Shown in pieces: positions 750-36,930 of a stretch of 37,973 bases of DNA; within the stretch, counting starts at the first letter, position 1, and each line of letters begins with the position of its first letter. Both the position numbers and the translations under genes were made by a program. Source of the DNA: an uncultured Candidatus Saccharibacteria bacterium. Lineage in GTDB: Bacteria > Patescibacteriota > Dojkabacteria > J137. The stretch is from assembly GCA_964445405.1 (NCBI GenBank), contig CAYUKX010000001.1, positions 1 to 37,973 of the forward strand, written 5' to 3'. The notes under the pieces are model-generated. The model was not told where the DNA came from. It saw only the letters and a list, made by a program, of their open reading frames with translations, and did no database searches.

Positions 750-754
750 CTTGG

Positions 755-2955: not shown

Positions 2956-2976
2956 TTTATATTTTATATTTTTTGT

Positions 2977-3891: not shown

Positions 3892-3905
3892 CCTTTAAAG
3901 GCAGA

Positions 3906-4133: not shown

Positions 4134-4217
4134 AGAGTTAATTGGTAAGTCCTAAGATATTAACTCTACTTTTTAAAAATCGTCAATTGGCTAAATAGCA
4201 AATACGTAACACTTTTT

Positions 4218-5072: not shown

Positions 5073-5194
5073 GCTTAAATTATAGCTTAAGGTCTCAAAT
5101 ATAGAGCATATATACCTAAACACAAAAAAATATAGTATAATTTCACCTGCATTTAGAGTAGTTCAGATTGAACTTTGCAAATTGTATTGACCCT

Positions 5195-5266
5195 TCGGGG
5201 TTCGTCTAATGGTAGGACAGCAGCCTTTGAAGCTGTCGATTGGGGTTCGAGTCCCTGACCCCGAAG
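5195..5266 (+). tRNA. tRNA-Gln(TTG), CCA not encoded
   Basis: Acceptor TCGGGGT/ACCCCGA, D arm GTCTAATGGTAGGAC, anticodon arm GCAGC-CTTTGAA-GCTGT, T arm with GGTTCGAGTCC. Confidence 0.95.
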
Positions 5267-5310
5267 AGTCAATATAATTCCACTCTTTATTTACTTCTAT
5301 TAATATTTCA

Positions 5311-6270: not shown

Positions 6271-9200
6271 TTACATCTCAAACTTTCCTAGAACTTCACT
6301 TGATTTCTTCATTGGGAATTCAATAGTAATTTGTTCTTTCTTTTTTACAGTTATTTTAATCAGAGTTTGACCTATAGAACTTTCTAGTCTATCGTATCTC
6401 TTGCTTAATTTAGCTTTATCTAATTCGTACCCTGCAGCATTTACTTGTAAGTGATAGCTACCTGGTTCTAATGTAAACCCAAATCTACCCTCGGCATCAG
6501 TTAGTAGAACATCTATTTGTCTACCTTGTTTAATATCGAATACTCTTACACTTGCACTCTTAATTCTTTTATAATTTGCGCTGTCGTATACATAACCCCA
6601 TTCACGCTTTCTTGCATTTAAAAGTATTAATACAAGTAACTGTATTAAATAAATACTTGCTACAAAGTAGTTAAAGAAACTTGGAGTTACTACTAGTGCA
6701 ATTGCTGAGATTATAAATCCAATAACAACAATAGAATTATTAATCTTTGGTAAATTCTTCTTTATACTCTCTCTAAATCGCAATAACGCTTCCTTAATTG
6801 TATTTTTCTTAAGTGATAGTTTCTTTAAACCAATGTTTTTTGCAGCAATTCCCTCGTTTTCGCTAATCTCTATTTCAAATTTTTCAAAGTGATAGTCTGA
6901 ATGCTTTGCTTCAAGTGTGTACGTGCCTTTATTAACCAAGAATCCATATTTACCATCAAAGCCTGTAACAATTTGTTTTTGAATCTTACCTACTTCGTCG
7001 TAGATTCGTACTAATACAAATGGAATTGGCTCTTTTGTTGATTCGTCAAAGATTACACCCCATGTACTTTTTCTTCTTTTTTTACCTATCCAAGGTATTG
7101 CATACATTACCATTCCTGGGTAAGTAATAATGTTCAGTGCACCAGTAGCAATTGTTGTAATCGTCAATATTAATGGGACTGTATCTTCAGTTACTTGTAT
7201 TGTAAATGGTTTTTCAGGGTAATAATTAATGTACCTAGAAATTGGAATTACTCCACTTTGTACACATGTTTTTTCGGTGTTTACACAATCTACCTTATAG
7301 TATAAGTCGTTAACACCATCTAAATTAGCCAGTTCAAGAATAGCAGTGTGGTTGGTAATCTTTTGTTTATCTTCATACGAAAAGATCATGCTATCTGAAG
7401 CGTTACCATAGTGTACTTTACAGAAAGATTCACTATCCGTTTGATAGTTTATTACTACTTGGCCATTTGAATTAAATGAATAGTTTTCGAAGTTATTAAT
7501 ACATTGTCTTGGATCACTAACTTGAATTACTTCCCCGTTTAGTGTTGTGAATGAATCATTATAATCATCACTCTTTCCTGCATTAGATGTTGCATGAATA
7601 TTGAATATGTATTGAGTACTCTCATCTAAATTTTCAATTACCTGGCAATGGTTTTCGGCATATTCTGCCTCTACTGGTGTAGCATTTGTATACTCACTAC
7701 CTGCAGCTAGTCCATAACTTATGTTTCCGATAGTAGAAATATTTGTTTCCCAACAGATTCTTTGAGCTGTTAGTCCAATGTTTTCTGTTGTTACATTTGT
7801 AATTTGAACATCTGCAATACAATCAACACTTTCAGGATTATCCTGACAGTTGTTTTCTGGGTTTACAATTATGTTTTGCGATGTTGCATTCAAGTTTGAA
7901 ATATTTTTATCTTGCACCTTAATTGTATAGATTCCTGATTCAGCAAACTTTACGCTATTGGTAAATACTCGTCTACCTGAATCTCCACTTATAAAAGTAT
8001 AGTCACTTGGTAACAAAGCCGATGCAGATGTTGAGGTAAAATTAACAGAACCTCTATACAAAGGATCATTATTATTTTGAGTATTAAATGCATCTACTGT
8101 TAAATCAATCACTTCACCAATTCTTACAACATATTTACTTGGTGTAATTCCTAACGTTTTAGCCGAACTTGTAACTTGTATTGTAATTGTATCTGTTAAA
8201 TCACTATAGATTACATCTCTTACAGTAACGGTAAATGTACCTTCTTTTAAGAATGTAAGTTCATTACTAAATTCATGAACCCCACTATTCGATAGCGTGA
8301 ATTGATAATTGTTTGGTAGTGTTGCGTCAGGAGATGCAGAAGATGTAAATGTAACAGTACCGTTATAGTTAGTTACGATTGCGTTAAGGTCGTCTTTTGC
8401 TCTTACAGTCAATGATAATTGTTCGCCAACATTGGCTTCAATTTTATTTGATTCTAATTCGATTGCAGTTGCTGTTGTAGGTGCAGGTTCTGTAACTGTT
8501 ATTGGAACAGAAGTTGCAGTAATTGAATTATTTATAGTATCTGTTACAGTTACCGTATACGTACCTGCTTGAGTAAATACTAATCCATTTGTGAATAGTT
8601 TTTCTGCGTCATCTAACTCAGTGAATGTGTAGTTGCTTGGCAAAATTGTATTATTGTTGCCTGTTGTTGTAAATGTAACAGTTCCTCTGTAATAAGTGTC
8701 TGGTTGTAATGTATCTGTTAACGCACTAACAATTAATGATATTGGATCACCTGCGGTTACATTTGTTGAGCTTGGAACAATTGATAAGCTATCAATTGAT
8801 GCTTCGACAGTTATTTGTACACTTGTTGCAGTTAATCCACTATCAGCAATATCTGTAACTGTAATTGTGTAAGTACCAACCTGGCTAAACAGAACCGAAT
8901 TATTAAAGTCATGCGAACCATTATCACCGCCTACATAAGTGTAATTACTTGGAATTGTTGCATTTGATCCTGCAGTAGAACCAAATGTAACTGTACCATT
9001 ATAAGAACTAAATATATCTGAATATTGATCTAGAATACTAACGCTTACACTTAGTTGTTCACCTTGCTTAACAGTTGTTTTGCTAGGAGTAATGGTTATA
9101 CTATTTGCATTTGCTGGTGGTAGGTTTACTGTTATCTGTTCTGTGGTTGCAGTTAAACTACCCGCAACTGTATCAGTTACAGTTACGGTATATGTTCCAG

Positions 9201-12200
9201 CCTGCGAGAATGATAATTGATTATTAAATGTAGCTGTACCATTATCAGAACCAGAGAATGTGTAATTACTTGGTAAGTTAGAGTTTGCCGATGGGTTACT
9301 AGTAAATTGTACAGTGCCTCGGTAAGTACCGTCAGTGTTATTAGAGCCATCTTTTGCATTAACAGTTAATGTTATAGTTTCGCCAACTAAAACATTAGTT
9401 TTATTTGTTGTTATTTCTAGACCTGTTGTATTAGACACAATAAAGTCAGCTTGATTACTTGAATTGTTACCAAACTCTGTCCATGATCCTGCTACAGAAG
9501 TATCTTCATTCAAGACTCTAGCTCTCCATTTATATTCTTCTCCTGGTATTAATCCCGATACATTCACCTCTGAGACTAATGGAACGCCACCACTAAATTC
9601 TGTTGTTGGGCTATTATAAACTCCAGCAAATATTGTGTTTTTGTAATCTGGAACAACTTTACCTTTTAATGTATACGCAGCTGTAAAGGATTCATTTAAA
9701 CCTACAACTTCAAATTCTGCTACTAAAGACTGTGGGTTTAGATTATCTGCACCAGGATCACTTACACTTGCTTTTAAGTTAACAGACTGTTCAGGTGTAA
9801 CACCTCCAACAGGAATTGCAGTTTCACCATCTATTTTATATTGATCTTTAAACAGTGGAGTTGACGGAATACTACTAATTGTTGGGAATGTACCAACCTG
9901 ACCACTTTGACCGCCTGCAGAAGTACCATTGGCTACCGTAACTGTTCCCGTAGATTCACAAGGTCCTTGAGTATATAGAATTGAAATTCTTCCACCACCA
10001 CCTCCTCCTCCATCAAATGCATCATCTCCACCTGATCCTCCTTGAGCATTTAATGTTCCGCTAATTGAACATGTTTGACCTTCAATTAATATTGAACCTC
10101 CTGCACCACCTCCTCCGCCTGGTGAAGCAGTCTTTCCATTTTCACCACTAACATCAATTGTACCTCGTATAGTCACATCACCACTTCTTACTCTTAATGC
10201 AACTGCTCCACCTCCAGCGCCTCCGCTTGCACCTGTGCCGGCTTGTCCACCTCCTGAACCTAGTGTAAATGGTGTTCTTTGATTACCATAAAATGTTCCT
10301 CCTTGTGGCGCTGTATTACCACCATCACTTTCGCCCGTACCTCCAGTTCCTCCGTGTCCTCCTCCTGCTCCACCGGATTGACCTGCACCCCTTACACCTC
10401 TTCCAACACCAGTTTCACTTGGGAAGCCTAATGCCTTACCTGTTAGTAATGCATTTGTATCAATTAGTAAATTACCTGTTAAGTTTAAAACAGGACCTCT
10501 ACCCCTTTTATTGTTGTATTCATTCCAAGAATAGGTCCTTTCGTAAATATTAATTTCAGTTGAGCTTAGTGCTCTTGGGTATAAGAAGACTTCATCTATA
10601 AGACCTACAAAACCTGTTGATGACCCCAAGCCTCCTTTACCGATTGATATTTTTGATAGAGGTAGTGAATAGTTTGTACCTAAGTTTAATGAATTAACTT
10701 CTGTACCATTTACATATATTTTTCTTATTCCTGTAGTTGAATCGTATGAAGCTACAACATGTTGCCATTGATTATCAGGTAAGTATGTAGTTGACTCAAA
10801 TACCTGAATCTCAGCTAAATTTAATAGGTTATTGTTTATTTTTGTAACTCTTAAGTATCTAGCATTTGCAGGTGCAAACGAATATTCGCTTGGGAACCCA
10901 ACATTTTGACCTGTTAAATTTACAACCTGACTTTGCTCACCACTAAAACTACCCGTATTCGAAACTTCAATTTTAAAGTCAGTGAATCTATCCTGACAAC
11001 AATCTGATCTATTCCAAATATTTACTTTACTGATGTTTTTTACAGCACCTAAATCAATTTGAATCCAGTCATTTGCACCTACAGTTGCGCCTTGGCATAA
11101 ATTAGAAGTATTACCGTCAACACAATTGGCTGGTGGGTAACTTGGATTATTATTTGCCATGGTAACAGTTTTACCCTGTGATACCAAACCTGTAACCAAT
11201 TTTGATGGCCACTCAAACCTTAGCTGTCTACTACCATCAATATCTAAACTACTTGTAGTAGCAACATTATTAAAGTTAATTAGTTCCTCAGCCTCTGAAC
11301 CGTTTGCTGTAAATTGCGAAAGCTTTGCCCACATACCAACAGTAAAGCTAGTAACAGTTAAGTCACTTACATCAACTTCTGCATAGTTACTTCCATTTAA
11401 TTCTAAAGCGTTACCTACTTTGCCATTTGCATTTCTTGAACTTCCAAAACTATTTAAGCTTCGGTTGTTGCCTGATGCATCACAATAGTCAGCTGCACCA
11501 CTACAAGAATCATCATTTTCTTCTTCAAAATTCCAAATAGCAATTGCATCTCCCAAGTTTTCTACGTTACCACCTTCAGCAACTGTTTCTTCTGATCTTA
11601 AAGCTAGTAAATCTTGTTTTAAATAAGCAGTTACATTTGAACCAATAAAAACATCATCAAGATTGTAATCAATTGCTTCAAAATCCATAGCTCTACCTGC
11701 TAAGCCATTGTTTTCAAGATATAAACTACCTTGACCAGGAGAATTTAAACCTGTATTTTCTATGTAAATTGTACCTGGTCCTGCATCTCTACCTGCATAG
11801 TTATCAGAAGCAGCACCAAAAGCTTGTATATAATTTTTATTATCTGTTTGAAAATCTCCATTGTTTTTATAAATAGCAATTCGTCCACCAGTTCCACCTT
11901 TGCTAGCACCATTTGCTCGTATTAATCCACTTCCATTCAATGTAGCAGCATTAATGTAAACACTTCCTCCCGAACCTCCTGTATTTCTATAATCACCAGT
12001 TGGATTACCATTAGTTGTTATAGTACCGCCAACAGATAAGGTATCAGCGATATTTAATGTAACTGCACCACCTCCAGACGCACTTCCATAATTACCACCA
12101 CTTCCTAAATCGCTTGGCTCTCTAAAGTCGCCGTATGGAACATGATCGCTGCTATATCCTCCATAAACTCCTCCGTAATTACCACCACCTGCTCCACCAG

Positions 12201-15200
12201 GACCCGCATTAGCTCCATATCCTCTTCCGTCTGCATTTATAGAGCCTCCAGAGATAACATTTAAGTTAGTGGAATTAATGGTTACTCCGTAATCATTTTT
12301 ATCTTGTGCATTATTATCCGCAGTTGTTGCTGCACTTCCAACATAAGATTGTAAATACAATATTGAAGCATTCTGAATCGTTAATGAATCAAAGTTATAA
12401 ATATCTTGGTTAGGGAATAAATCTGTTTGTCTTTTTTGAGTTAATGCATATAAGGTAACTCTTGCAGGATTTGTTCCATCGCCAATTGTTAGTGTGTTAG
12501 CTCCTTGCATACTACCTATTACATCAAGGTTTACTCTATCTACTGTAAATGTTGTTGGTAATTGTATTAAACCTTCAGATGAGATACTAGGTGTAGTATT
12601 GTCACCTTCAATTCCCGTTTCGCTATCAATTTGAAGTGTTGAAGCAATTCCATATGCTCTTAAATTTCCGTATTCTTTAAGATATATTTTACCGAATTGT
12701 TGTACTGGATTATTACTGTCGTATGGAATACCTGCGTAATATCCACTTGCCCCATTATTATTTATGTATAAATCACCACTTCCGCCAAGATCTCCATCCT
12801 CATCAATAAAGATTGTTCCTGGTGCATAACCAAAAGATTGAATATTAACTTTTGAGTTTATTGGATAGGTACCTGATTTTTTGTAAACGGCTATTCTACC
12901 ACCACTACTATATCCACCTGATGCATAACCATCTGCACCTGAATTAGCTCTAATTAAACCAGAACCATTAAATGTATCTGTTACTATAAAAATACTTCCA
13001 CCGGAACCACCACCATTTCTATAATCGCCTGTGTCACCACCCTTTGCACTAATTGTTCCATTATTTGTTAGTGTCCCACTTGTTGTTAGTTTAATTGAAC
13101 CTGCACCTGCTCCCCAGTTTCCACCACTACCTAAATCTATAGGTTCTTTTACACTTCCGTATGGAGTATCAGATCCATTAAATCCACCATAACCGCCACC
13201 TGCGGCTGCTCCTGGACCTGCACCAGCAGAATATCCAAAGGAGTCTGCGTTAATATTTCCACCGTTGTCAATTGTAATATTGATTGCATTAAGTTCAACA
13301 CCGTAATCGTTTAGGTTTGCTGAATTATTATCAGTAGTTACTCCACCATTACCAACGTAAGACCTTAAATAGACAATTGCTGAATTTTTAACTGTAAAAT
13401 TATCAAAACTATATAAACTTTGATTTGGATACAAATCATCTTGTCTTTTTTGTGTTCTTGCATATAAAGTTAACCTTGCAGGATTTGTTCCATCCCCGAT
13501 TGTTAAATCACTCGCCCCTTGAATTCCTCCTATTATATCTAGATTTATTCTATCGATAGTAAATGTTGAAGGAAGTTGTAATAAACCTTCGGTTGATATA
13601 CCTGGTGTAGTATTATCACCTTCAATTCCAGTTTCACTACTTACAACCAATGTAGAACTAATGCCATATGCTCTTAAATGACCGTACTCTTTTAAGTAAA
13701 CTTTATTAAACTGTTGTGTTGGAGCATTACTATCGTATGGAATTCCTGCATAATAACCATTAGAGCCATTATTATTTATATATAAATCTCCATTACCACC
13801 TAAATCACCATCTTCATCAATATAGATAGTTCCTGGCGAATACCCAAAGGCTTGAAGGTTTACCTTTGTATTTATTGGATAATCTCCGTTGTGTCTGTAA
13901 ATTGCAATTCTTCCACCTGTACCTATTCTTCCTGTAGGTGTATAGGCGCTTGCTTTAACAACTCCTGAACCATTAAATGTATCTGATATTATCCAAACAC
14001 TACCTCCAGCTCCACCAGAATTTCGATAATCACCAGATCCACCTGAAAGTGAACTTATTATTCCATTATTTGTTAATACTCCAGATACATTTAATTTAAT
14101 TGCACCTCCTCCATACGAAGTTCCATAGTTACCACCACTACCTAAACTTACAGGTTCTTTTACACTTCCGTATGGAGTATTACTACCATTGTATCCACCG
14201 TAGCCTCCACCGTTAGCTCCACCTGCTCCCGGGCCCGCATTTGGACTATATCCTCTACCTTCAGCATTTATGACTCCTCCATTTTCAACTGAAAGTGTTG
14301 TTGCATTAATAGAAACTCCATATTCATTCAAATTATCGACGTTATTATCTGCAGTAGTAGACCCACTGCCGACATAAGATTGTAAATATAAATTTGTATT
14401 ATTCTTTAATGTTAGAGTGTCAAAGTTATACTGATCTTGATTTGGATATAACTCATTTTGTCTTCTTTGAGTACGTGCATAGAATGTTAATTTAGCTGGA
14501 TCTGTACCATTACCTACAGTTAGTGTTTCTGCACCTGAGTAATTTCCTATTATATCTAGATTTACTCTATCTACCGTAAATACCGCTGGCAATTGTAGTA
14601 AGCCTTCAGTTGCAATTGACGGAACAGTTGTGTCACCTATAACACCAGCTTCGTTTGCTATTACAAGTGTAGAATCAATACCATATGCCCTTAAATGACC
14701 ATACTCTTTTAGATAAATAGTATTAAACTCTTGGATTGGATTTAATACATCGTATGGTATTCCTGCATAGTAGCCATTAGAACCATTATTATTTATGTAT
14801 AAATCTCCATTTCCACCAAGATCACCATCTTCATCAATGTAGATTGTTCCCGGAGCATAACCAAATGATTGTAGATTTGTTTTTGAATTCAAAGGATAAG
14901 TACCATCTTTTTTGTAAATTGCTATTCTTCCGCCTGTACTATAACCACCGGAAGCATAACCATTCACACCAGAATTTACCTGCATTAAACCAGCACCATT
15001 TAATGTGTTTGCCACTACCAAAATACTTCCTCCAGAACCTCCACCATTTCTATAATCTCCTGTGTCTCCACCTTTTGAGCTAATTGTTCCGTTATTTGTT
15101 AATGTATTTGTTGCAGTTAACTTGATTGCGCCTGCGCCTGCTCCCCAATTACCACCACTACCTAAACTTACAGGTTCTTTTACACTTCCATATGGAGTAT

Positions 15201-18200
15201 CAGATCCATTAAATCCACCATAACCACCTCCTGCAGCGGCTCCTGGGCCCACATTAGCAGAGTAGCCTCTTGAATCTGCATTAATAAATCCACCTGAATC
15301 AACCGTAATATTTTCAGATGTTAAATCCACACCATAATCGTTTAGATTTGCAGCATTGTTATCTGTAATTACTCCCGCATTCCCTACATAAGATTGAAGA
15401 TACAAATACGATGTATTCTTAACATTAAGTGTTGTAAATGTGTATTTATCTTGGTTTGGATACAGATCATTTTGCCTTTTTTGATTTCTGGCATACAGTG
15501 TTACCCTTGCAGGATTTGTTCCGTCGCCGATAGTCAGATTATTTGCTCCTTGAATGTTTCCAATAACATCTAAATTTACTCTATCTACTGTAAATGTTGT
15601 TGGCAGTTGAATTGACCCTTCTGGAGATAGACTTGGAGTAGAATTATCACCTTCAATTCCAGTTTCGCTACTTATAACTAAAGTTGAATTAATTCCGTAA
15701 ATTTTAAGATGACCATATTCTTTAAGATAGATTTTATTAAACTGTTGTGTAGGATTATTCGCGTCGTAAGGAACACCAGCTGCATAACCATTAGAGCCGT
15801 TATTATTTGCATACAAATCTCCATTTCCACCTAGATTACCATCTTCGTCTATATATATTGTTCCTGGCGATCTACCAAAAGATTGTATATTAGCCTTATT
15901 GTTAATTGGATAGCTACCAGAATGTCTATAGATTGCTATTCTACCTCCAGTACTATAACCACCAGATGCATAACCATTTGTACCACCATTAGTTCTTATC
16001 AATCCATTTCCATCAAGTACATCGGTAACTATAAATATACTTCCACCTGCACCTCCTCCATATCTGTAATCTCCTGTGTCACCTCCATTTGCACTTATGA
16101 TTCCGTTATTAGTAATGGTACCAATAACATCTAATTTTAATGCTCCAGCACCTGCTCCCCAGTTACCACCACTACCTAAACTTATTGGTTCTTTTACACT
16201 TCCGTATGGTGTGTCTGAACCATTAAATCCACCATAGCCACCACCAACTGCTGCACCTGGTCCAGTATTTCCTGTGTAACCTCTTGAATCAGCATTTATA
16301 ATCCCTGTAGGTTCAACTACAATATTTTGGGCAAGTACCACTACACTTATTTCATTATCGTAATTTGAATCACTAACTATGTAGCTAGCAAGAACTAATG
16401 TAGAACCACTCTTAATTCTAACTTCACTTACATTTGTACAATCAAAAATACCATGATTATTTGTGTCAGCTGCCCAAGTTTGATTAGTATCAATTATCCC
16501 GTCAACATCTGGACACGAACCAAGCGATGTAACTATCGCAATTATATTTGAAGTTCCAATTGCAGAGCCGTCTGTGACTTTTATTCTTACACTTGCCTGA
16601 GTATCAAATGTTAATGTGATTGATTTAACACCCAAGTCGCCAGATTGGAATTGATAACTAGTTGGATCAAGAACACCTGATACAACTGTATTTATATTAT
16701 CGGGATTAACTGCACTTAAACTTGGATTACCTATGTAGTCAGTTTTAATATTACTGTACTGATCGTAAGCTGTAATGTTTACTGTAAACGCTTCGTTTAT
16801 TAAAGAATACGAAGAGGTTGAAACACCAAAGCTCGCAACTAAATCAGGTGTACTAACAAAATCAAAAGTAATCGGACTATCTACCAATCCAGAGCCTATT
16901 GCTCTTACCTGATTATTAATGCTTTTTGTGCCTAATGTATAGTATCTAGAGCTATAACCATCATCGTCGGTAATTGCATTTCCACCGGAAAATCTACCAC
17001 CAACACCGCCGTTACTTATGGACCAATTAACTGTATAACCTGGGACTGGGAATCCGACGCTATCTACTACTCTAATTACTAATGGATCAACAATTTGAGT
17101 ATTCACTATTCCTGTCTGATTATTCCCGCTAATATATTGAATATTTGCTGGTGTACCTGTTACTAATACATCCCTGTCGGTTTCAAGATTATTGCCATAA
17201 CTAACCCAGTAACTATACCCACCTTTGTTATCTCTAACTCTTGCCCTCCAGTGATATTCTTTAGATCTTGTAATACTGCTTACTGTTATTTTTCCGCAAT
17301 CTGCAACAGGTGTGTTACAACTTTGGGGATTAGCAATATTTGATGATTGTGTATGTGTTGGAACACCTGTAAAGTCTTGCCCTAGCTCTCTAAATTCAAT
17401 CTGTAGCGATAACGTATCGGATGCATCTACATCGATTAAATTACTTGCAAAAACTACTGTAGTTTCTGTTGTAATGCCATTTACAAAGATTTCATTTGTT
17501 TGATTTGATTTAAATTGTTTTAATACGGTAGGTGCATTTGGCCTACATGTTGGACCTATAATTGTACCAATACCTCCATCTTGTGAGCTGCCAGTAATGC
17601 CTGGTGCAACACTCGCTGTCCCGTTAAAGGTGTTACTTGCTGTACAAAGTACAACAACTCTTCCACCTCCACCACCTCCACCTTGGTACTGAACATCTGC
17701 AGCAGATCCACCTCTCGCTTCAATTAAACCAGATCCAGACAAGCTATCTGCTTCTATCCATACGCTACCTCCAGCTCCACCTCCACCTGAGGTTGCACCT
17801 GATGCCTGACCATCTAATCCATTTGCAGATATCTTTCCATTAACCACAACAGATCCAGTTGCAGTAATTCGAATCGCGCCTCCACCAGCACCACCGAATG
17901 AACTACCTGCTTGTAAAGAAGTTCCTGATACTTGAATAGAGTTTATTTTTGGAGTATCAGTAACATCAATGCCTGTATCAATGTAAGCCTTTATTCTATA
18001 GTAAGTATAATAAGATGTAATGCTTGCAGATAGATCTAATGGCATAGAATCTTGTATTGGATATTCACCACCAGACTGATAATAATTATCTACAGCTGGG
18101 AAAGTTGTTTGCTCGCCAGTAAATTCACCTGTAAGTGAGGCTTCAATTTGAAATTTAGGATTAATGTTATCTGTACCATCTAATTCCCAATCTGCTACTA

Positions 18201-20247
18201 TACTAGATAAATTTAATGATCCAAGACTGGTTGCATCGATAGTCTCTGAAGTCCAGGACTGTTCTCCGCTGGTGTACTCTGTAGGTGGAATATAGTTATA
18301 AATTTGCTGAACTTCTGCCTGTGATAAATCCCTATTATATAATCTAAAATCATCTATCAATCCATTGAAGCCCCAAATGTAACCGTTATAACCTGTATTC
18401 CCGATTGTAAGATCTGATTCGCTGTTCGGTAGACCACCTGTTGTACTCCTAAAATCATTTATTAATAGCTCTCCATTTAAATACACTTTCATAGCATTAT
18501 TTTCGTAAACTGCTACCAAATGCACCCATTCGTTTGTTGGCAACCCACTTGCAGTTCGCTCTGATTCTAGAATATCAAAAGCTACACCACCACTTCCGAA
18601 AGCGTAAAAAACGTATTCCCCATTTTCGTGCCTTGCAATCATATCGTAGTTAGATGTGCTGTTTGCATATACCCATGTAGAAATTGAGACTGTATCATTA
18701 ATGCCAACTTGGTGAATGTCGGGAACTGTCACATAGTTATTTGTGCCATTAACCGAAAGCGCTCTACCAAATTTTCCTGCTTCTGTTGTGTTTATATCGT
18801 TACCTGGCGTTGCATTTTTTGCACTTAAGCTTGAATCTATTACCTGACCAGGAGTATTACTATAACTAGCTTCATCAAACTTATAATATGCAACAAGTCC
18901 GTTGTTTACATTACTGCCTGTAGTATTATCTGTAAGTACAATTTGATCATTATCGTTTGCCTTAGTACCAGTTAAAACTGTTCCATTAGCCGTAAATTCA
19001 TCTTTTGAGTCCCAAGTTTTAGAATATAGATCAGAAGTTCCCGCACCACTTCCCCCAGCACCACCAAGAGTATGTGGAGATTCAATACTGCCATAAACAC
19101 TTCCTCCAAAACCTGAAGGGTTACTTACATCTTCAATACCTTGACCTCCTGCACCTCCATGTCCACCTCCTGCACCTCCAGTTTGTCCTGCAGAGTTGCC
19201 ACCTTGACCAATTGATTCTGTTTCAATAACTTGATAACCATTTCCATCGGCAGTTATTTTGCCTCCATTTTGAACTGTAAGATTATTTACCAATAAAGTA
19301 ACACCCCAATCACCATCTGTAGATGAGTTCTCTGTTACATATCTATCAATAATAATTTCTCCTGTTGGGCCAACAATAATATCTAAAGATGCACAATCAA
19401 TAATTCCATCTATGTTATCTGGTGTAAGAGTTACTTGATTATTTATTACAGAGGGTGATGATGGCAACGGACAAGAAGTTTGTGCGACCAGCTGTCTTAT
19501 ATTGTAGTTTAATACTGCAAAGCCACTAGCAACAAACACACCAAGTTGGAATAAGAATAATATTAAACCTACTATTAACGTTGTAATGGTTGGGTAATAC
19601 CTTACTCTATAGAAAGTTAAATCCTTACTACTTTGTGGATTAGCTTCTTTTACTTTGCCTCCGCCAAAAATATATAGAAATGTTAATAAAAAGCTTAAGT
19701 AAATTTGATTAAAAAGCCATTTAATCCAACTAATACTATTTAAAATAAAATTAGATCGCTTTTGAATCTTGTGCATTAAAACATCACAGTGATTACTTAC
19801 TTTTAAAACTTTCTTAATAATTTTGTTTTGAATACTTGTTCTATATGTTGGTATAACTTCAACACTAAATGTATACGATAAATAACTAATAAAATTATCT
19901 ACAAAGTTATTATCGTTTTTATTTAGGATAACGATTGCTGGGTCATTTAATTGAGGTAGATTTTCATCTTCGTGAATCAAAATAATTCGCCTTTTCTTAC
20001 CGAAGCCTTCTTTATCTTTTATTGATTGTACTAATTCAGCGCCTGCAAACTCTGGCAGTGTAGAATCGACAACTAACAAATCTGGATTATATAATTCTAT
20101 TAAGCCTAAACCTTTAATCCCATTATCTGAAGTGATTATAGAGATATCATTAAAGGCTTGAGTTAGTAGTTTTTTTATTGATTCTCTTATTGTGAAATCA
20201 TCATCTACTATCAAGACTTTTATTTGATTTTCTTTTTTTGAAGACAT
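6271..20247 (-). CDS. Giant (4658 aa) surface protein: N-terminal receiver domain, TM segments, LamG domains, Gly-rich repeats, F5/8C/F-type lectin, Ig-like and FN3 repeats, C-terminal TMs with two carboxypeptidase-regulatory-like domains
   Basis: Uninterrupted 14-kb ORF; VLIVDD...PDLLVVD-x-x-LP; LamG W-x-H-x-V-x-x-Y...GLID; RSDCCQDR; repeated Y-x-GTV-x-F...LP-x-x-Y-x-F; WG-x-x-x-D...VRI...T-x-x-x-G-x-YGF. Confidence 0.85.
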   Translation of the reverse strand: MSSKKENQIKVLIVDDDFTIRESIKKLLTQAFNDISIITSDNGIKGLGLIELYNPDLLVVDSTLPEFAGAELVQSIKDKEGFGKKRRIILIHEDENLPQLNDPAIVILNKNDNNFVDNFISYLSYTFSVEVIPTYRTSIQNKIIKKVLKVSNHCDVLMHKIQKRSNFILNSISWIKWLFNQIYLSFLLTFLYIFGGGKVKEANPQSSKDLTFYRVRYYPTITTLIVGLILFLFQLGVFVASGFAVLNYNIRQLVAQTSCPLPSSPSVINNQVTLTPDNIDGIIDCASLDIIVGPTGEIIIDRYVTENSSTDGDWGVTLLVNNLTVQNGGKITADGNGYQVIETESIGQGGNSAGQTGGAGGGHGGAGGQGIEDVSNPSGFGGSVYGSIESPHTLGGAGGSGAGTSDLYSKTWDSKDEFTANGTVLTGTKANDNDQIVLTDNTTGSNVNNGLVAYYKFDEASYSNTPGQVIDSSLSAKNATPGNDINTTEAGKFGRALSVNGTNNYVTVPDIHQVGINDTVSISTWVYANSTSNYDMIARHENGEYVFYAFGSGGVAFDILESERTASGLPTNEWVHLVAVYENNAMKVYLNGELLINDFRSTTGGLPNSESDLTIGNTGYNGYIWGFNGLIDDFRLYNRDLSQAEVQQIYNYIPPTEYTSGEQSWTSETIDATSLGSLNLSSIVADWELDGTDNINPKFQIEASLTGEFTGEQTTFPAVDNYYQSGGEYPIQDSMPLDLSASITSYYTYYRIKAYIDTGIDVTDTPKINSIQVSGTSLQAGSSFGGAGGGAIRITATGSVVVNGKISANGLDGQASGATSGGGGAGGSVWIEADSLSGSGLIEARGGSAADVQYQGGGGGGGRVVVLCTASNTFNGTASVAPGITGSSQDGGIGTIIGPTCRPNAPTVLKQFKSNQTNEIFVNGITTETTVVFASNLIDVDASDTLSLQIEFRELGQDFTGVPTHTQSSNIANPQSCNTPVADCGKITVSSITRSKEYHWRARVRDNKGGYSYWVSYGNNLETDRDVLVTGTPANIQYISGNNQTGIVNTQIVDPLVIRVVDSVGFPVPGYTVNWSISNGGVGGRFSGGNAITDDDGYSSRYYTLGTKSINNQVRAIGSGLVDSPITFDFVSTPDLVASFGVSTSSYSLINEAFTVNITAYDQYSNIKTDYIGNPSLSAVNPDNINTVVSGVLDPTSYQFQSGDLGVKSITLTFDTQASVRIKVTDGSAIGTSNIIAIVTSLGSCPDVDGIIDTNQTWAADTNNHGIFDCTNVSEVRIKSGSTLVLASYIVSDSNYDNEISVVVLAQNIVVEPTGIINADSRGYTGNTGPGAAVGGGYGGFNGSDTPYGSVKEPISLGSGGNWGAGAGALKLDVIGTITNNGIISANGGDTGDYRYGGGAGGSIFIVTDVLDGNGLIRTNGGTNGYASGGYSTGGRIAIYRHSGSYPINNKANIQSFGRSPGTIYIDEDGNLGGNGDLYANNNGSNGYAAGVPYDANNPTQQFNKIYLKEYGHLKIYGINSTLVISSETGIEGDNSTPSLSPEGSIQLPTTFTVDRVNLDVIGNIQGANNLTIGDGTNPARVTLYARNQKRQNDLYPNQDKYTFTTLNVKNTSYLYLQSYVGNAGVITDNNAANLNDYGVDLTSENITVDSGGFINADSRGYSANVGPGAAAGGGYGGFNGSDTPYGSVKEPVSLGSGGNWGAGAGAIKLTATNTLTNNGTISSKGGDTGDYRNGGGSGGSILVVANTLNGAGLMQVNSGVNGYASGGYSTGGRIAIYKKDGTYPLNSKTNLQSFGYAPGTIYIDEDGDLGGNGDLYINNNGSNGYYAGIPYDVLNPIQEFNTIYLKEYGHLRAYGIDSTLVIANEAGVIGDTTVPSIATEGLLQLPAVFTVDRVNLDIIGNYSGAETLTVGNGTDPAKLTFYARTQRRQNELYPNQDQYNFDTLTLKNNTNLYLQSYVGSGSTTADNNVDNLNEYGVSINATTLSVENGGVINAEGRGYSPNAGPGAGGANGGGYGGYNGSNTPYGSVKEPVSLGSGGNYGTSYGGGAIKLNVSGVLTNNGIISSLSGGSGDYRNSGGAGGSVWIISDTFNGSGVVKASAYTPTGRIGTGGRIAIYRHNGDYPINTKVNLQAFGYSPGTIYIDEDGDLGGNGDLYINNNGSNGYYAGIPYDSNAPTQQFNKVYLKEYGHLRAYGISSTLVVSSETGIEGDNTTPGISTEGLLQLPSTFTIDRINLDIIGGIQGASDLTIGDGTNPARLTLYARTQKRQDDLYPNQSLYSFDNFTVKNSAIVYLRSYVGNGGVTTDNNSANLNDYGVELNAINITIDNGGNINADSFGYSAGAGPGAAAGGGYGGFNGSDTPYGSVKEPIDLGSGGNWGAGAGSIKLTTSGTLTNNGTISAKGGDTGDYRNGGGSGGSIFIVTDTFNGSGLIRANSGADGYASGGYSSGGRIAVYKKSGTYPINSKVNIQSFGYAPGTIFIDEDGDLGGSGDLYINNNGASGYYAGIPYDSNNPVQQFGKIYLKEYGNLRAYGIASTLQIDSETGIEGDNTTPSISSEGLIQLPTTFTVDRVNLDVIGSMQGANTLTIGDGTNPARVTLYALTQKRQTDLFPNQDIYNFDSLTIQNASILYLQSYVGSAATTADNNAQDKNDYGVTINSTNLNVISGGSINADGRGYGANAGPGGAGGGNYGGVYGGYSSDHVPYGDFREPSDLGSGGNYGSASGGGAVTLNIADTLSVGGTITTNGNPTGDYRNTGGSGGSVYINAATLNGSGLIRANGASKGGTGGRIAIYKNNGDFQTDNKNYIQAFGAASDNYAGRDAGPGTIYIENTGLNSPGQGSLYLENNGLAGRAMDFEAIDYNLDDVFIGSNVTAYLKQDLLALRSEETVAEGGNVENLGDAIAIWNFEEENDDSCSGAADYCDASGNNRSLNSFGSSRNANGKVGNALELNGSNYAEVDVSDLTVTSFTVGMWAKLSQFTANGSEAEELINFNNVATTSSLDIDGSRQLRFEWPSKLVTGLVSQGKTVTMANNNPSYPPANCVDGNTSNLCQGATVGANDWIQIDLGAVKNISKVNIWNRSDCCQDRFTDFKIEVSNTGSFSGEQSQVVNLTGQNVGFPSEYSFAPANARYLRVTKINNNLLNLAEIQVFESTTYLPDNQWQHVVASYDSTTGIRKIYVNGTEVNSLNLGTNYSLPLSKISIGKGGLGSSTGFVGLIDEVFLYPRALSSTEINIYERTYSWNEYNNKRGRGPVLNLTGNLLIDTNALLTGKALGFPSETGVGRGVRGAGQSGGAGGGHGGTGGTGESDGGNTAPQGGTFYGNQRTPFTLGSGGGQAGTGASGGAGGGAVALRVRSGDVTIRGTIDVSGENGKTASPGGGGGAGGSILIEGQTCSISGTLNAQGGSGGDDAFDGGGGGGGRISILYTQGPCESTGTVTVANGTSAGGQSGQVGTFPTISSIPSTPLFKDQYKIDGETAIPVGGVTPEQSVNLKASVSDPGADNLNPQSLVAEFEVVGLNESFTAAYTLKGKVVPDYKNTIFAGVYNSPTTEFSGGVPLVSEVNVSGLIPGEEYKWRARVLNEDTSVAGSWTEFGNNSSNQADFIVSNTTGLEITTNKTNVLVGETITLTVNAKDGSNNTDGTYRGTVQFTSNPSANSNLPSNYTFSGSDNGTATFNNQLSFSQAGTYTVTVTDTVAGSLTATTEQITVNLPPANANSITITPSKTTVKQGEQLSVSVSILDQYSDIFSSYNGTVTFGSTAGSNATIPSNYTYVGGDNGSHDFNNSVLFSQVGTYTITVTDIADSGLTATSVQITVEASIDSLSIVPSSTNVTAGDPISLIVSALTDTLQPDTYYRGTVTFTTTGNNNTILPSNYTFTELDDAEKLFTNGLVFTQAGTYTVTVTDTINNSITATSVPITVTEPAPTTATAIELESNKIEANVGEQLSLTVRAKDDLNAIVTNYNGTVTFTSSASPDATLPNNYQFTLSNSGVHEFSNELTFLKEGTFTVTVRDVIYSDLTDTITIQVTSSAKTLGITPSKYVVRIGEVIDLTVDAFNTQNNNDPLYRGSVNFTSTSASALLPSDYTFISGDSGRRVFTNSVKFAESGIYTIKVQDKNISNLNATSQNIIVNPENNCQDNPESVDCIADVQITNVTTENIGLTAQRICWETNISTIGNISYGLAAGSEYTNATPVEAEYAENHCQVIENLDESTQYIFNIHATSNAGKSDDYNDSFTTLNGEVIQVSDPRQCINNFENYSFNSNGQVVINYQTDSESFCKVHYGNASDSMIFSYEDKQKITNHTAILELANLDGVNDLYYKVDCVNTEKTCVQSGVIPISRYINYYPEKPFTIQVTEDTVPLILTITTIATGALNIITYPGMVMYAIPWIGKKRRKSTWGVIFDESTKEPIPFVLVRIYDEVGKIQKQIVTGFDGKYGFLVNKGTYTLEAKHSDYHFEKFEIEISENEGIAAKNIGLKKLSLKKNTIKEALLRFRESIKKNLPKINNSIVVIGFIISAIALVVTPSFFNYFVASIYLIQLLVLILLNARKREWGYVYDSANYKRIKSASVRVFDIKQGRQIDVLLTDAEGRFGFTLEPGSYHLQVNAAGYELDKAKLSKRYDRLESSIGQTLIKITVKKKEQITIEFPMKKSSEVLGKFEM
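11700..16400 (-). repeat. Intragenic tandem repeat, ~1015-nt (~340-aa) unit, about 4.5 copies
   Basis: TACACTTCC(G/A)TATGG (YGSV) recurs at 16195, 15181, 14161 and 13150, with a divergent copy near 12130; spacings 1014, 1020, 1011 and 1026 nt. Confidence 0.9.
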
Positions 20248-20330
20248 ATCGCAAGAAATTAGCTCTCGTTATTTATAGTTCTAGTTTATAGAAATTGTAT
20301 TTTTAATTCAATATCATAGTTCACTAAAGT

Positions 20331-21836
20331 TTAAATTTCTTTATGCACATCTTTAGGATCCTTATCGTCACGCAATCCTAAAAAAATAGCTTGCCTTAAA
20401 TTACCTGATTCTGTCCACTCAGCAAATTTAATTTGTGCAACAAATTTCGGAGAGATCCACGCAGCAACATTTTTATCATCTTTAAAATTATCAAATGGAG
20501 AATTTTTTAAAATATGTTTATCGAACTTCGTTTTAAGTTCATTTATTAAATCTGAACTAAAGCCGCTACCAGTTCTTCCAACATAAATAAACTTATTATT
20601 CTGATACATCCCTACAAGTAATGCGCCAAAACCTTCGCGCAAACCTTCAGGAAACGTATAACCACCAATTACCACTTCCTGTTCATGAACTGCTTTAATC
20701 TTTTTCCAGTATGAACTCCGCTCTTGTATATACTCGCTATTAATTTTTTTTGCCACAATACCTTCGAATAGTCTTTCTTTAGCCTTTGTGAAAGCAGTTA
20801 TTCCTTCTTCTAGAATATAATTTGTTTTCTTTACAACTGAGTTATTTTTTATTAATTTTTTTAATGTGTTTTTTCTTTCTATAAGTGGCAATTTAGTCAA
20901 ATCTAAATCGTTCAATTTCAAAATATCAAATACGTAATATATTAAATTACCAGCTCTTGAGTCATTGTAATTTTGCAATGCTTGAAATGATGGAATACCA
21001 TTTTGATCTTCAACTACAATTTCCCCATCTAGAATTATGTTTAGTCCTAGCTTTTCGAGCTCTTCAATTATTTTTGGATACTTACTGTTTAAAGTAATAT
21101 TGTTTCTTGAATACAATCTTACGTTTCCATTAGAAATATCTGCTATCGCTCTGTACCCATCGAGTTTTTCCTCGAATAACCACTCTTTATCATTGAATGG
21201 TTTATCGATTAACTCCGCAAGCATCGGCTTTATTACTGTACTTGTCCACTCTCTTGAATCATTACTTTGTTTAATATCCTCGAGAGTTTTCTCAGTTAGG
21301 ACAGATCTTTCATCGTCTAGTAAATTTGAACCGACATAGTCATCTTTTTCTTTTAATAATAACCATGCGTTATCGCCTGCGCGTTTAAAACGCACAAATG
21401 CGTATCTTCCTTTTGCCTTTTGGCCATTCAATATTAGTTTTATATCACCACTTTTAATACCTTCTAATACTTTTTGATCAACCTCTTTTTTTGTAGTGGC
21501 ACCTTCCACTGTATAAGTTCCTGTATCCCATACTATAACTTCTCCTGCACCATAATTGCCCTCGGGAATAACTCCCTCAAAATCTTTATAACTGTAAGGG
21601 TGATCTTCTACCATCATGGCTAAGTGTCGTTCTTTAGTATCTGTTGATAACCCTTTTGGCACCGCCCAAGATTTTAGAACTCCTTCAACCTCAATTCTAA
21701 AATCATAGTGCAATCGGGTGGCATTGTGTTTTTGAATTACAAAAATAGGGAATTCACTTTTGGAAGTTTCGATTTTACCTTCAGGTTCTTTGGTATTACT
21801 AAAATCCCTTTTTTTATTATATTGTTCTAGTTTCAT
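20331..21836 (-). CDS. ligD: NHEJ DNA ligase D (3'-phosphoesterase plus ATP-dependent ligase; no polymerase domain)
   Basis: PE motifs QKH-x-A-x-RLHYDFR, SWAVPKG, EDHP, YGAG; ligase motif I EKLDGYR, LDGEIV, YYVFD, EGIVAK. Confidence 0.93.
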   Translation of the reverse strand: MKLEQYNKKRDFSNTKEPEGKIETSKSEFPIFVIQKHNATRLHYDFRIEVEGVLKSWAVPKGLSTDTKERHLAMMVEDHPYSYKDFEGVIPEGNYGAGEVIVWDTGTYTVEGATTKKEVDQKVLEGIKSGDIKLILNGQKAKGRYAFVRFKRAGDNAWLLLKEKDDYVGSNLLDDERSVLTEKTLEDIKQSNDSREWTSTVIKPMLAELIDKPFNDKEWLFEEKLDGYRAIADISNGNVRLYSRNNITLNSKYPKIIEELEKLGLNIILDGEIVVEDQNGIPSFQALQNYNDSRAGNLIYYVFDILKLNDLDLTKLPLIERKNTLKKLIKNNSVVKKTNYILEEGITAFTKAKERLFEGIVAKKINSEYIQERSSYWKKIKAVHEQEVVIGGYTFPEGLREGFGALLVGMYQNNKFIYVGRTGSGFSSDLINELKTKFDKHILKNSPFDNFKDDKNVAAWISPKFVAQIKFAEWTESGNLRQAIFLGLRDDKDPKDVHKEI

Positions 21837-22618
21837 TAAGATTTTCTTGATTCTTCAATTTCTGCAAGACTTTTTTGCAACTGCTCCATAATTTCTGTTA
21901 CATCAGTTTGTTTAGGTGCAGTCTTCGGCTCTTTAATTGGTTTTTTATTAATTTTTGCATCAATAATCCTTTTTAAACCCTTTAAATAGTCATCTTGAAA
22001 ATCTGATGGATCGAATTGCTCCGACATTCCTTCTATTAATTGTTCTGCCATTTGCACTTCTTTATCTGATAGTTTTATATTCTTAGGCAAATTCAATTTT
22101 GTTGCAGGTTTAATTTCTGATTCATACCTTAATTGATTAAGTATAAGCATATTACCTTCTGGCTTTACAATACATAAATGCTCTCTATTTTTTAGTACAA
22201 ACTCAGCAACACCAACTTTATTAGATTTTTTTAAAGCTTTAATTAATAACATGTAGGTTTTTTCTGCACCTTTTGCAGGCTCTAAGTAATAAGGTTTATC
22301 AAAATAAATTGGATCAATATCTTCTTTATCAACAAAACAAGAAATCTCTATGCTGTTACTTCTATGAATATCTACTTTTTCAAAGTCTTCATCGGTTAAT
22401 ACAACATAATCGCCCTTTTGATACTCATAACCTTTCACAATGTCCTTCCATGGAACTTCCTTTTCAGTTTCTGTGTCAATTCGCGCGTATCTAATTGGAG
22501 CTTTATCTTTTTTGCTAAGCATATCCAAATCAAGTTGTACGCTTTGTGTTGCTGTATATAGATTTACTGGAATGTAAATTAATCCAAAGCTAATCCCACC
22601 AGTCCACATTGCTCTCAT
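21836..22618 (-). CDS. ku: NHEJ Ku protein
   Basis: MRAMWTGGISFGLIYIPV, IVKGYEY and YFDKPYYL-x-P are bacterial Ku hallmarks; its stop overlaps the ligD start (TAATG). Confidence 0.95.
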   Translation of the reverse strand: MRAMWTGGISFGLIYIPVNLYTATQSVQLDLDMLSKKDKAPIRYARIDTETEKEVPWKDIVKGYEYQKGDYVVLTDEDFEKVDIHRSNSIEISCFVDKEDIDPIYFDKPYYLEPAKGAEKTYMLLIKALKKSNKVGVAEFVLKNREHLCIVKPEGNMLILNQLRYESEIKPATKLNLPKNIKLSDKEVQMAEQLIEGMSEQFDPSDFQDDYLKGLKRIIDAKINKKPIKEPKTAPKQTDVTEIMEQLQKSLAEIEESRKS

Positions 22619-22989: not shown

Positions 22990-23799
22990 ATGAACGAATA
23001 CGAACAGATAAAAAAAGCATTAGTTTATATTGCTGAAAACTATAAATCTCAACCTTCTTTACAAGAATTAGCCAATGCAGTGAATCTGAATCCATATCAA
23101 TTTCAAAAATTATTTACACTTTGGGCAGGTATAAGTCCTAAACAATTCTTACAATACATAAATATTAATTACGCAAAAGAGATCTTATTAAGTAATGGTA
23201 GTATTACAGATGCTACATACAATATAGGGCTTTCGGGAACCAGTAGGTTGCATGATCTTTTTGTAAATTTAACTGCGATGACACCCGCGGAATATAAAAA
23301 TAAAGGTAAAAATCTAAAGATAGAATACAGTTTTAATAATAGTAAATTCGGAAGCTACTTGGTGGCTTCAACTAAAAAAGGAATTTGTGAATTACTTTTT
23401 GGAGAAAATAAATTAACTCTTTGGGAACTTAATCATAAATGGACGAATGCAAATATAGTTGAAAAAACAAATGAACAGCATAAATTAGTAGCTGATTTTA
23501 TTAATAACCAATTACACAAAGGTGAAAAAATTAAATTACATTTAAAGGGTACTAATTTTCAAATAAAAGTTTGGGAGGGACTCCTAAAAATACCTGAACA
23601 ACAATTATGCAGCTATTCGCAAGTTGCAAACAGTATTGAGTCAAACGCATATAGGGCAGTTGGAACAGCTATAGCCAATAATCCTATCGCATACATAATT
23701 CCATGTCACAGAGTTATAAAATCTACCGGTGAATTTGGGAACTATAGATGGGGTAAGGAAATAAAGATTGCAATGATTGGTCTTGAACAAGTTAAATAG
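22990..23799 (+). CDS. Ada-like protein: AraC HTH plus O6-methylguanine-DNA methyltransferase
   Basis: N-terminal AraC-type HTH (WAGISPKQF), GT-x-FQ-x-x-VW, RAVG-x-A, and active site PCHRV. Confidence 0.9.
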   Translation: MNEYEQIKKALVYIAENYKSQPSLQELANAVNLNPYQFQKLFTLWAGISPKQFLQYININYAKEILLSNGSITDATYNIGLSGTSRLHDLFVNLTAMTPAEYKNKGKNLKIEYSFNNSKFGSYLVASTKKGICELLFGENKLTLWELNHKWTNANIVEKTNEQHKLVADFINNQLHKGEKIKLHLKGTNFQIKVWEGLLKIPEQQLCSYSQVANSIESNAYRAVGTAIANNPIAYIIPCHRVIKSTGEFGNYRWGKEIKIAMIGLEQVK

Positions 23800-24740: not shown

Positions 24741-25511
24741 TTAAGGTCGAAGTGTACCAGCGAATACCTGCCAAGCTAACAAAGATTTAGCAACCAAACT
24801 TAATATTATATAAACTCTTTCACCATATAAATAATCTTTCCAAGGTCCAATCTTTTTGTATTGTAATATCATGTTTATTGCAAATGAATTAAAGAATACA
24901 AAAATACTTACATAAATCCAATATACAAAATCAGGAATATTACCACCTCCATAAGTTCTTGCCCCGTATACATAAATTCCAAAAACAATCCAAGGAACAA
25001 TACCAGCTACGCAGCCTAAAATATATGTAAGCCAGTTTACATTTTTATGATCCTGATTATGAACTTCCATAGCTAATCCTAGAAGATTCATTAAAGCATC
25101 TAGTGTGAATATCATTAACAAACTAGAAATATCATAAATTCCTGAAAGCAAGCTGATTGCAACCATCATTACACTGGCGCTTAATGCATATTCAAACCAT
25201 CTAACTTTATTAATTCCTTTTTCAACATTCTTTTCGTAGTTCTTTTTATAGACTGTACCTATAAATAGGTGTGCTAAAGAACTTAAGAAAAAGAATAACA
25301 CTACAAACCAAGCAAGATTAACTTCACCTAATGTAGTTACAGTTGGTAAAAGTTTTTGTGTAGAAACTTCAAACTTTAAATAACTAATTGTAATAGGAAC
25401 AACACCTTTTGAAGGATCACTGATAGCTAAAACTAGAACACCTTGCAAAAAATGCAGCATGGCCATGAACAGATTGAATCTGTTTAGACCTTTTAGTTTT
25501 GCTTGCAACAT
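24741..25511 (-). CDS. heR: Heliorhodopsin
   Basis: 7 TM helices; TM1 N...LH-x-LQ, TM2 His (SSLAH), TM3 N-x-x-RW-x-EY-x-x-SAS-x-M, FFNSFAIN, and TM7 LSLVAKSLLAW with the retinal-binding Lys. Confidence 0.95.
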   Translation of the reverse strand: MLQAKLKGLNRFNLFMAMLHFLQGVLVLAISDPSKGVVPITISYLKFEVSTQKLLPTVTTLGEVNLAWFVVLFFFLSSLAHLFIGTVYKKNYEKNVEKGINKVRWFEYALSASVMMVAISLLSGIYDISSLLMIFTLDALMNLLGLAMEVHNQDHKNVNWLTYILGCVAGIVPWIVFGIYVYGARTYGGGNIPDFVYWIYVSIFVFFNSFAINMILQYKKIGPWKDYLYGERVYIILSLVAKSLLAWQVFAGTLRP

Positions 25512-36861: not shown

Positions 36862-36930
36862 GATAATATATCAGAATTAACCTACGATAACAATTTACTT
36901 GAGCTGTATTGCCTTTAAAGCTTTTCATAC

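Follow-up and report, generated by a model that had tools for sequence, protein, structure and literature searches.

The closest described systems differ in where an intracellular signal meets the cell surface. In the LapD-LapG-LapA system what happens to a giant adhesin is determined by an intracellular signal, via a transmembrane relay and without transcription, according to the passages of the source compared here (PMC3032553), and the two-component system ArlRS-MgrA is described, in the sections considered, as governing giant staphylococcal surface proteins and adhesion (PMC6548404). In the relevant part of an archaeal census, a rare membrane-anchored output of response regulators, MetOD3, is listed from methanogens, with very few members in one or two genera (PMC5847659). 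A preprint lists, in the excerpts available, CheY-like receivers as one kind of domain carried by giant proteins in Actinobacteriota and Omnitrophota, with a layout different from that reported below. Here we describe a gene encoding a 4658-amino acid (aa) protein (6271..20247, stop codon 6271-6273; like all its parts discussed below, on the minus strand) from an uncultured Candidatus Saccharibacteria bacterium (lineage Dojkabacteria in GTDB; assembly GCA_964445405.1, contig CAYUKX010000001.1), whose full analysed stretch of 37,973 nucleotides we call the window. The protein begins with a response-regulator receiver (REC) domain, followed by membrane segments and a giant ectodomain. A literature search, with supplements outside its range, found no description of this architecture and thus gave no sign that it is already well known, a possibility raised in a preliminary description of this DNA.

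Judged from sequence comparison, the head of the protein is a conserved module of 250 residues for export and anchoring, shared by many surface proteins in the lineage. We tentatively favour the view that a membrane-tethered, phosphorylatable receiver forms part of the module through which a giant surface protein is exported and anchored, and would control the deployment of that protein from inside the cell and at the protein level.

The receiver domain and its fusion to the ectodomain

The gene is a single unbroken open reading frame (ORF) of 4658 codons with zero internal stops under translation table 11, and its length of 13,977 nt at 35% G+C is far above chance expectation. Positions 19480-20247 encode residues 1-256. 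A reading with genetic code 25 was dropped, as the long ORFs are clean under table 11 across the window. Pfam identifies the Response_reg family (PF00072) in residues 11-93, with 41.6 bits for the 296-aa N-terminus and 38.1 bits for the whole protein (cut-off 30.2), the match covering only profile positions 1-79 of 111; in the genome-wide PF00072 search the gene scored 43.6 bits over profile positions 1-80. Together with structure prediction, structure comparison and residue conservation, this match delimits a REC domain of residues 9-127 (19867..20223). The acidic pair is D15/D16 in the motif VLIVDDD, the phospho-acceptor is D61 in LLVVDSTLP and the β5 Lys is K110, while the position of the β4 Thr/Ser is occupied by His92 (IILIH). 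The acidic pair and acceptor Asp named in the preliminary description are thereby confirmed in a domain both matched by Pfam and modelled.

In the AlphaFold2 (AF2) model of residues 1-280, built from 19 family sequences (predicted local distance difference test, pLDDT, 80.5; predicted TM-score 0.71), the elements follow the order β1-α1-β2-α2-β3-α3-β4, a 12-residue loop replacing α4, and β5-α5. D61, D15/D16 and K110 are located at the ends of strands 57-61, 9-14 and 105-109, respectively. No helix intervenes between β4 (87-92) and β5 (105-109), hence the (βα)5 fold is incomplete. The REC domain is followed by three predicted helices (135-163, 167-195 and 205-247). Foldseek searches with the model identified the receivers Spo0F (6ifh; target TM-score 0.81, root-mean-square deviation 2.2 Å) and PhoP (1mvo; 0.80); for the module's helical half they returned nothing informative. 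The ESM Atlas search returned generic REC clusters only, and the NCBIfam scan of the N-terminus returned only sub-threshold generic matches.

Residue conservation was counted in 150 representatives of 50%-identity clusters of the family. D61 is kept in 147 of them (the other three have Asn) and K110 in 143; the position of D15 is occupied by 131 Asp and 14 Glu, that of D16 by 125 Asp, 13 Asn and 3 Glu, and P65 is present in 150/150. The same residue pattern was found in 43 non-redundant modules from genomic loci, which remained of 82 collected sequences once those of less than 240 aa and those sharing their first 240 aa with another had been removed. On the combined evidence of fold prediction and conservation we regard the first ~127 residues as a true, albeit atypical, REC domain. 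Its phospho-acceptor machinery is, by these counts, under strong constraint, and the receiver looks live but atypical.

The fusion of this domain to the ectodomain is supported by orthologs from three genomes of the same genus, which have open frames of 4660, 4681 and 2451 aa (complete ORFs of 4656, 4672 and 2448 aa) and in all of which the junction is open. Two further proteins from other assemblies (P0002 and P0003) have a head 67-68% identical to that of our protein, followed by the same ectodomain. The claim of the preliminary description that a REC domain is joined in frame to a 4658-aa adhesin-like protein thus stands, on the unbroken ORF, the Pfam match and the open frames in congeners. 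Comparison with the two full-length orthologs revealed 73 and 65% identity in REC, 72 and 64% in the loop before the second hydrophobic segment (TM2), 70 and 67% in TM2 itself, and 71 and 76% in the C-terminal membrane module; the whole proteins are 57 and 54.5% identical and their laminin G (LamG) domains 31 and 28%. Since identity is highest in them, the predicted intracellular and membrane parts appear to be the most constrained.

As for the reads over 19500-19900, inspection of which had been suggested at the outset, DNA contigs from Logan (three runs of one study) aligned to positions 18800-20400 contain no indels or joints, but they are short pieces, none of those listed spans 19740-19763, and they are not usable as independent proof of the junction, which is therefore settled by the orthologs. 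The shortness of these pieces and the uncovered stretch are all that speaks for an artefact, in which a mis-assembly or a missed frameshift would have joined a REC gene to an adhesin gene, whereas the aligned pieces themselves are continuous and the identical in-frame junction is present in independent genomes, some of them single-contig, as well as in P0002 and P0003. We consider such an artefact vanishingly improbable and effectively refuted by the orthologs; misassembly was dropped, as the orthologs carry the same open frame.

The module family, its membrane segments and the rest of the protein

A search of 1.84 billion cluster representatives with a profile of the module matched 183 proteins at E<=1e-30, which corresponds to at least 183 clusters. 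The module starts within the first 59 residues in all 150 listed matches; 78 of these representatives are at least 1000 aa long and 38 at least 2000 aa. Among 41 genomes (our own and 40 relatives), 20 possess a module match at E<=1e-6, with 14/24 in the same family, 3/5 in a second family of the order and, for two more families within the class, 1/1 each. In relatives the module also heads frames of 2446, 2328, 2589, 2579, 2341, 3638, 2395 and 1161-1365 aa, and the giant frames of this kind include some from three single-contig genomes. Of 300 further genomes sampled evenly across the phylum, one gave a match at E<=1e-15, and it belongs to the window's own family; the related loci are recorded as Candidatus Dojkabacteria, apart from a few under the names Saccharibacteria or Doudnabacteria. 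The searches thus place the module almost only in the window's own class. The fusion had originally been considered unusual; it is real, conserved and, as far as we could find, undescribed, but it is not a one-off, given that the 250-aa module heads proteins of at least 183 clusters.

The genome (1.04 Mb, 114 contigs, 84.85% complete) contains nine REC matches, of which seven cover the full profile; the giant gene and a gene on contig C25 alone stop near profile position 76-80. The C25 protein (607 aa) shares 30.5% identity with residues 21-247 across REC, the linker and both helices, and it was the one paralog to emerge from the count proposed in the preliminary description, beside the lineage-wide family in relatives. 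Its gene directly precedes that of a 1630-aa protein, which has a signal peptide of its own and carries the C-terminal module in a weak copy, and the two-gene layout recurs in a complete genome of a relative. The two loci (G000:C25:4170-5990 and 5993-10882, L099; L037:5944-7818 and 7822-12822), each with a REC-headed protein of 607-625 aa followed by one of ~1630 aa, look like a split version of the giant architecture. At another locus (L033/L072, G010:C14:54316-55058) the module is distributed over overlapping frames, residues 9-185 and then 180-250, and this copy is probably frameshifted or broken.

Within the 250-aa head the REC domain is followed by a basic amphipathic linker helix (residues 135-163, 19759..19845; mean hydrophobicity -0.03, hydrophobic moment 0.30), a first hydrophobic helix, H1 (residues 167-195, 19663..19749, both helices as modelled by AF2), a conserved basic juxtamembrane loop (residues 196-220, 19588..19662) that ends with FRVRYYP(T), and TM2 (residues 221-247, 19507..19587), a predicted signal or signal-anchor segment. 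In the loop, R214 is conserved in 134/150, Y218 in 129/150 and P219 in 136/150 representatives, and P219 is invariant in alignment A1. Two full passes after a cytoplasmic REC domain would leave the lectin/Ig (immunoglobulin) part inside the cell, hence we tested which of the hydrophobic segments is likely to span the membrane, using the 43 modules and a hydrophobicity scale. The best 19-residue insertion energy of H1 has a mean of +1.9 kcal/mol and is negative in 5/43 modules, compared with a mean of -1.2 kcal/mol and negative values in 37/43 for TM2; H1 is also the more amphipathic of the two. The mean number of Lys and Arg residues is 3.2 before H1, 5.3 in the loop between H1 and TM2, and 0.84 in the 15 residues after TM2, which have a net charge of -1.0. 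By the positive-inside rule the loop would therefore be cytoplasmic. The C-terminal helices are flanked by KKRRK and NARKRE, a pattern that likewise places the large middle part outside. These heuristics indicate that REC lies inside and the ectodomain outside, with TM2 alone crossing the membrane and H1 probably membrane-associated or re-entrant rather than spanning. Thus both hydrophobic segments noted in the preliminary description are present (~170-195 and 221-247), but only the second appears to be membrane-spanning.

Eight residues past TM2, at A255, we found a putative site resembling those of signal peptidase I and obeying the (-3,-1) rule of von Heijne (L253-V-A255/Q256; 19480..19491), recognized by motif conservation. 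In the 38 fused modules, Ala occupies position -1 in 33, the adjacent columns show at most 47% identity, and position -3 always has a small or aliphatic residue; the rule holds in 34/38 fused modules and in 115/124 representatives of fused forms. Ordinary signal peptides encoded in the window end with VSA/E, ITA/A and VYA/Q, and the genome has three S26 signal peptidase genes. The loop, TM2 and the site together provide the basic n-region, hydrophobic h-region and small -3/-1 residues of a Sec-type signal. The segment departs from such signals in its position, with ~220 cytoplasmic residues preceding it, and in its core of ~25 residues in place of a short (7-15 residue) h-region at the extreme N-terminus. 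In relatives there are also free-standing complete modules of 255-296 aa that end right after TM2. These REC-H1-TM2 proteins are encoded at L091:793-1557, L092:406-1185, L093:6291-7178, L094:261-1079 and L095:1611-2456; three of them adjoin a gene that by eye resembles a family-2 glycosyltransferase, and behind one lies the gene of a 434-aa protein that has a signal peptide.

The ectodomain (residues 257-4327, 7267..19479) was dissected with Pfam and BLAST searches for internal repeats. It starts with a Gly-rich head, followed by Laminin_G_3 (residues 500-647, 18307-18750), five Gly-rich repeats of ~340-390 aa (residues 1291-2853, 11689-16377), an F5/8 type C domain (residues 3032-3138, 10834-11154) and five Ig-like repeats of ~100 aa (residues 3591-4113, 7909-9477). 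The architecture scan recommended in the preliminary description thus finds REC, Laminin_G_3, F5/8 type C and Ig-like domains on one protein. Behind the membrane segments Pfam finds only domains of lectin, Ig and β-sandwich type, none of them a canonical cytoplasmic output.

The protein ends with a membrane module (residues 4328-4658, 6274..7266) that Pfam matches in two stretches (PF13715) and that consists of a transmembrane helix, KKRRK, the motif WGxxxD, a β-sandwich (CarbopepD_reg_2), a transmembrane hairpin and a second β-sandwich. The AF2 model of this 330-aa piece (pLDDT 71.9) has helices at 28-47, 155-192 and 196-217 in its own numbering, and two β domains; the NCBIfam scan gave sub-threshold generic matches only, and complex prediction for the N-terminal module (residues 1-262) with the C-terminal one returned a score of 0.00, which carries no verdict. 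Application of the positive-inside rule would place both β-sandwiches in the cytoplasm, which is unusual for CarboxypepD_reg-like folds. A hidden Markov model (HMM) built from seven copies finds the module at the extreme C-terminus of 38/150 family representatives, which amounts to 38/71 of those of at least 1300 aa, and many long members without it may be cut off by contig ends. In our genome the HMM matches eight further ORFs (C23:6471-16313, C40:2-8263, C22:3590-5071, C15:7635-15206, C15:6474-7580, C35:2780-3820, C82:3-2945 and C25:5978-10882), two of which (C15:6474-7580 and C25:5978-10882) score weakly. Copies of the module end several giant proteins of the genome beyond the REC-headed one.

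Proposed function and rival explanations

The predicted phosphorylation may have a role in deployment, localisation or contact sensing, as the preliminary description had suggested. In the mechanism that we favour, a histidine kinase encoded elsewhere, or a small phosphodonor, would phosphorylate D61, and the resulting change would be relayed via α5, the linker helix and the juxtamembrane loop to TM2, the state of which would determine the timing, place or manner of the surface protein's export, retention or presentation. TM2, as a signal or signal-anchor of the Sec type, would bring the 4,000-residue ectodomain to the outside, and the far end of the protein would be fixed in the membrane by the second conserved module. 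Control of the adhesin would thus act inside-out, at the protein level and not via transcription.

The genome has five kinase genes of the HisKA/HATPase type, none adjacent to the giant gene, and HATPase_c has seven matches in the genome, none of them on contig C1. The statement in the preliminary description that the window encodes no histidine kinase therefore holds. Pfam finds no HisKA or HATPase_c in the giant protein either, which sets it apart from hybrid histidine kinases. At five related loci (L052, L060, L061, L064 and L066, about positions 100-12800 of each), which are kin and not five independent cases, a type IV pilus operon of the order PilC-pilin-pilin-pilin-large pilin (large pilin of ~914 aa) ends with the REC-headed giant gene, which starts 4 nt after the last pilin gene in the pilus loci checked. 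In our own genome the end position of the pilus operon is taken by a PAS-HisKA-HATPase kinase. A search of relatives for this kinase, one of the five and the only one searched, found paralogs in 35/41 genomes with no informative pattern.

Several observations weigh against a receiver that steers the adhesin. The β4 Thr/Ser, the normal coupler of phosphorylation to output, is replaced by His92 in our protein, and Ser or Thr occupies this position in just 35/150 representatives, His being the commonest residue (50), which bears out the earlier remark that the position may be atypical. Helix α4, part of the usual output face, is missing from the AF2 model. Scanning of the 22 other ORFs of the window brought up no histidine kinase, matches to the pilus operon's PAS kinase at E<=1e-20 are absent from G001 (95% complete) and G002 (97%), both of which have an ortholog of the giant gene, and the search for a kinase partner yielded none that could be assigned. 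The topology is drawn from heuristics of charge and hydrophobicity. Finally, the conserved (-3,-1) site suggests that the receiver may be cut from the ectodomain, and a receiver that is cleaved off would exert no direct conformational control over the mature adhesin.

The last point leads to a different explanation, less probable in our judgement than direct control yet worth serious consideration, namely that the head may be a cleavable "receiver leader". TM2 with L-V-A/Q would be a true signal peptide cut by signal peptidase I; the ectodomain would be freed and held by the C-terminal module, REC-H1-TM2 would stay behind as a membrane-tethered receiver, and its phosphorylation state would gate or report export instead of steering the mature adhesin. 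The frequency with which the (-3,-1) rule is obeyed, with an Ala at -1 that stands out from variable columns, the likeness of the site to ordinary signal-peptide ends of the same window, the three S26 peptidases, the free-standing modules that stop just past TM2 and the separate C-terminal anchor in over half of the long members (38/71) all agree with it, whereas a hydrophobic core as long as ~25 residues is what uncleaved signal anchors typically have, the site lies ~8 residues beyond that core, and the 607-aa paralog and other members without the C-terminal module would be released on cutting. A more specific version of it, which we rate as unlikely, is a phospho-switchable export leader, through which a kinase would decide for each molecule whether, when and where the adhesin crosses the membrane. 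The cleavable receiver signal of ~255 residues would then persist in the membrane after cleavage, the free-standing forms would be the same element encoded alone, and the cleaved receiver may report the export of surface proteins to a phosphorelay or pilus network.

Signalling in the opposite direction, from outside in, seems to us improbable. Binding to a host would alter the accessibility of the tethered REC to a kinase or phosphatase, and the protein would act as a contact-dependent phosphate sink or as a docking site of a phosphorelay, e.g. one linked to type IV pili. The tethering of the receiver beside a conserved juxtamembrane loop, the location of some members in pilus operons and the excess of REC domains (nine) over kinases (five) in the genome fit such a sensor, but there is no known route by which the single-pass anchor of a flexible 4,000-residue ectodomain would pass on a binding event, cleavage at the possible site would separate the two parts, and no partner was found. 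Slightly less probable still is a pseudo-receiver, in which the REC fold would serve the anchor only as a head for structure, dimerisation or scaffolding and would never be phosphorylated; the absence of both the Thr/Ser and α4, the truncated Pfam match (profile positions 1-79 of 111) and the lack of a neighbouring kinase gene are compatible with it. Loss of the acceptor Asp, acidic pair or Lys is usual in such domains, however, while here D61 is kept in 147/150 representatives, K110 in 143/150 and an acidic residue (Asp or Glu) at the position of D15 in 145/150.

Ultra-small bacteria belonging to the candidate phyla radiation (CPR)/Patescibacteria are thought to live attached to host cells. 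Their transcription factors are few, and giant surface proteins take up a large part of a genome of ~1 Mb. If the receiver is indeed wired into the export and anchor module, it would provide control of attachment at the protein level, cheap for a reduced genome, and would extend the outputs known for response regulators by one at the membrane or in secretion. If instead the head proves to be a switchable export leader, it would represent a novel class of regulated secretion signal and a new type of two-component output. The family offers concrete parts for study (D61, the FRVRYYPT loop, the A255/Q256 site and the co-occurring C-terminal module), and the module is a sequence handle for finding Dojkabacteria adhesins in metagenomes.

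Gene neighbourhood and comparison with known systems

The giant gene shares its strand with Ku and LigD, downstream of which it lies, and abuts Obg; scans for promoters and terminators at both of its ends found none above shuffled expectation. The directly upstream Ku and LigD (phosphoesterase-ligase) genes form an end-joining pair (20331-22618, minus strand), and on the opposite strand to them, at 22990-23799, an AraC-type helix-turn-helix domain is fused to a methylguanine methyltransferase (Ada-like). At 24741-25511 (minus strand) we found a heliorhodopsin gene (PF18761, E 3.3e-94), in an ultra-small genome. A second surface-protein cluster (31319-37878, minus strand) encodes an Ig-like protein of 1503 aa that has an ordinary signal peptide; two ORFs (343 and 315 aa) without a Pfam match precede it, the 343-aa one opening with a signal-peptide-like hydrophobic stretch that ends with ITA/A; no REC head occurs anywhere in this cluster.

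Canonical receivers of PF00072, such as CheY, Spo0F and PhoP, have the same fold and the same Asp/Asp-Asp/Lys pocket as the head of the giant protein. The latter differs from them in the absence of α4 and of the β4 Thr/Ser, in its membrane tether and in the extracellular giant that follows, and it is not joined to a cytoplasmic output domain, as in canonical response regulators. MetOD3 shares with it the lineage-specific occurrence of response regulators with a membrane-anchored part after REC, although the passages on MetOD3, compared by description and not by sequence, give no sign of a giant ectodomain. In ArlRS-MgrA, as described in the sections considered, control is exerted through a cascade of DNA-binding regulators, whereas the receiver described here is carried by the surface protein or its leader.

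YSIRK-G/S signal peptides of Gram-positive cocci and the extended signal peptides of autotransporters steer the location or speed of the secretion of large proteins. They share with the module described here the n-h-c logic, represented in our case by the basic loop, TM2 and the (-3,-1) site, but they comprise 40-60 residues and no folded domain, while the module has ~255 residues and includes a phospho-receiver. The inside-out mode that we propose for the REC-headed module may be likened to LapD-LapG-LapA, as far as the passages compared allow. There the sensing of cyclic di-GMP by GGDEF/EAL domains resides in a separate protein, LapD, and involves a periplasmic protease in a diderm cell; in the whole giant protein Pfam finds no GGDEF, EAL or HAMP domain and no LapG-binding periplasmic domain, which distinguishes it from receptors of the LapD type, and the REC domain is fused to the adhesin precursor itself.

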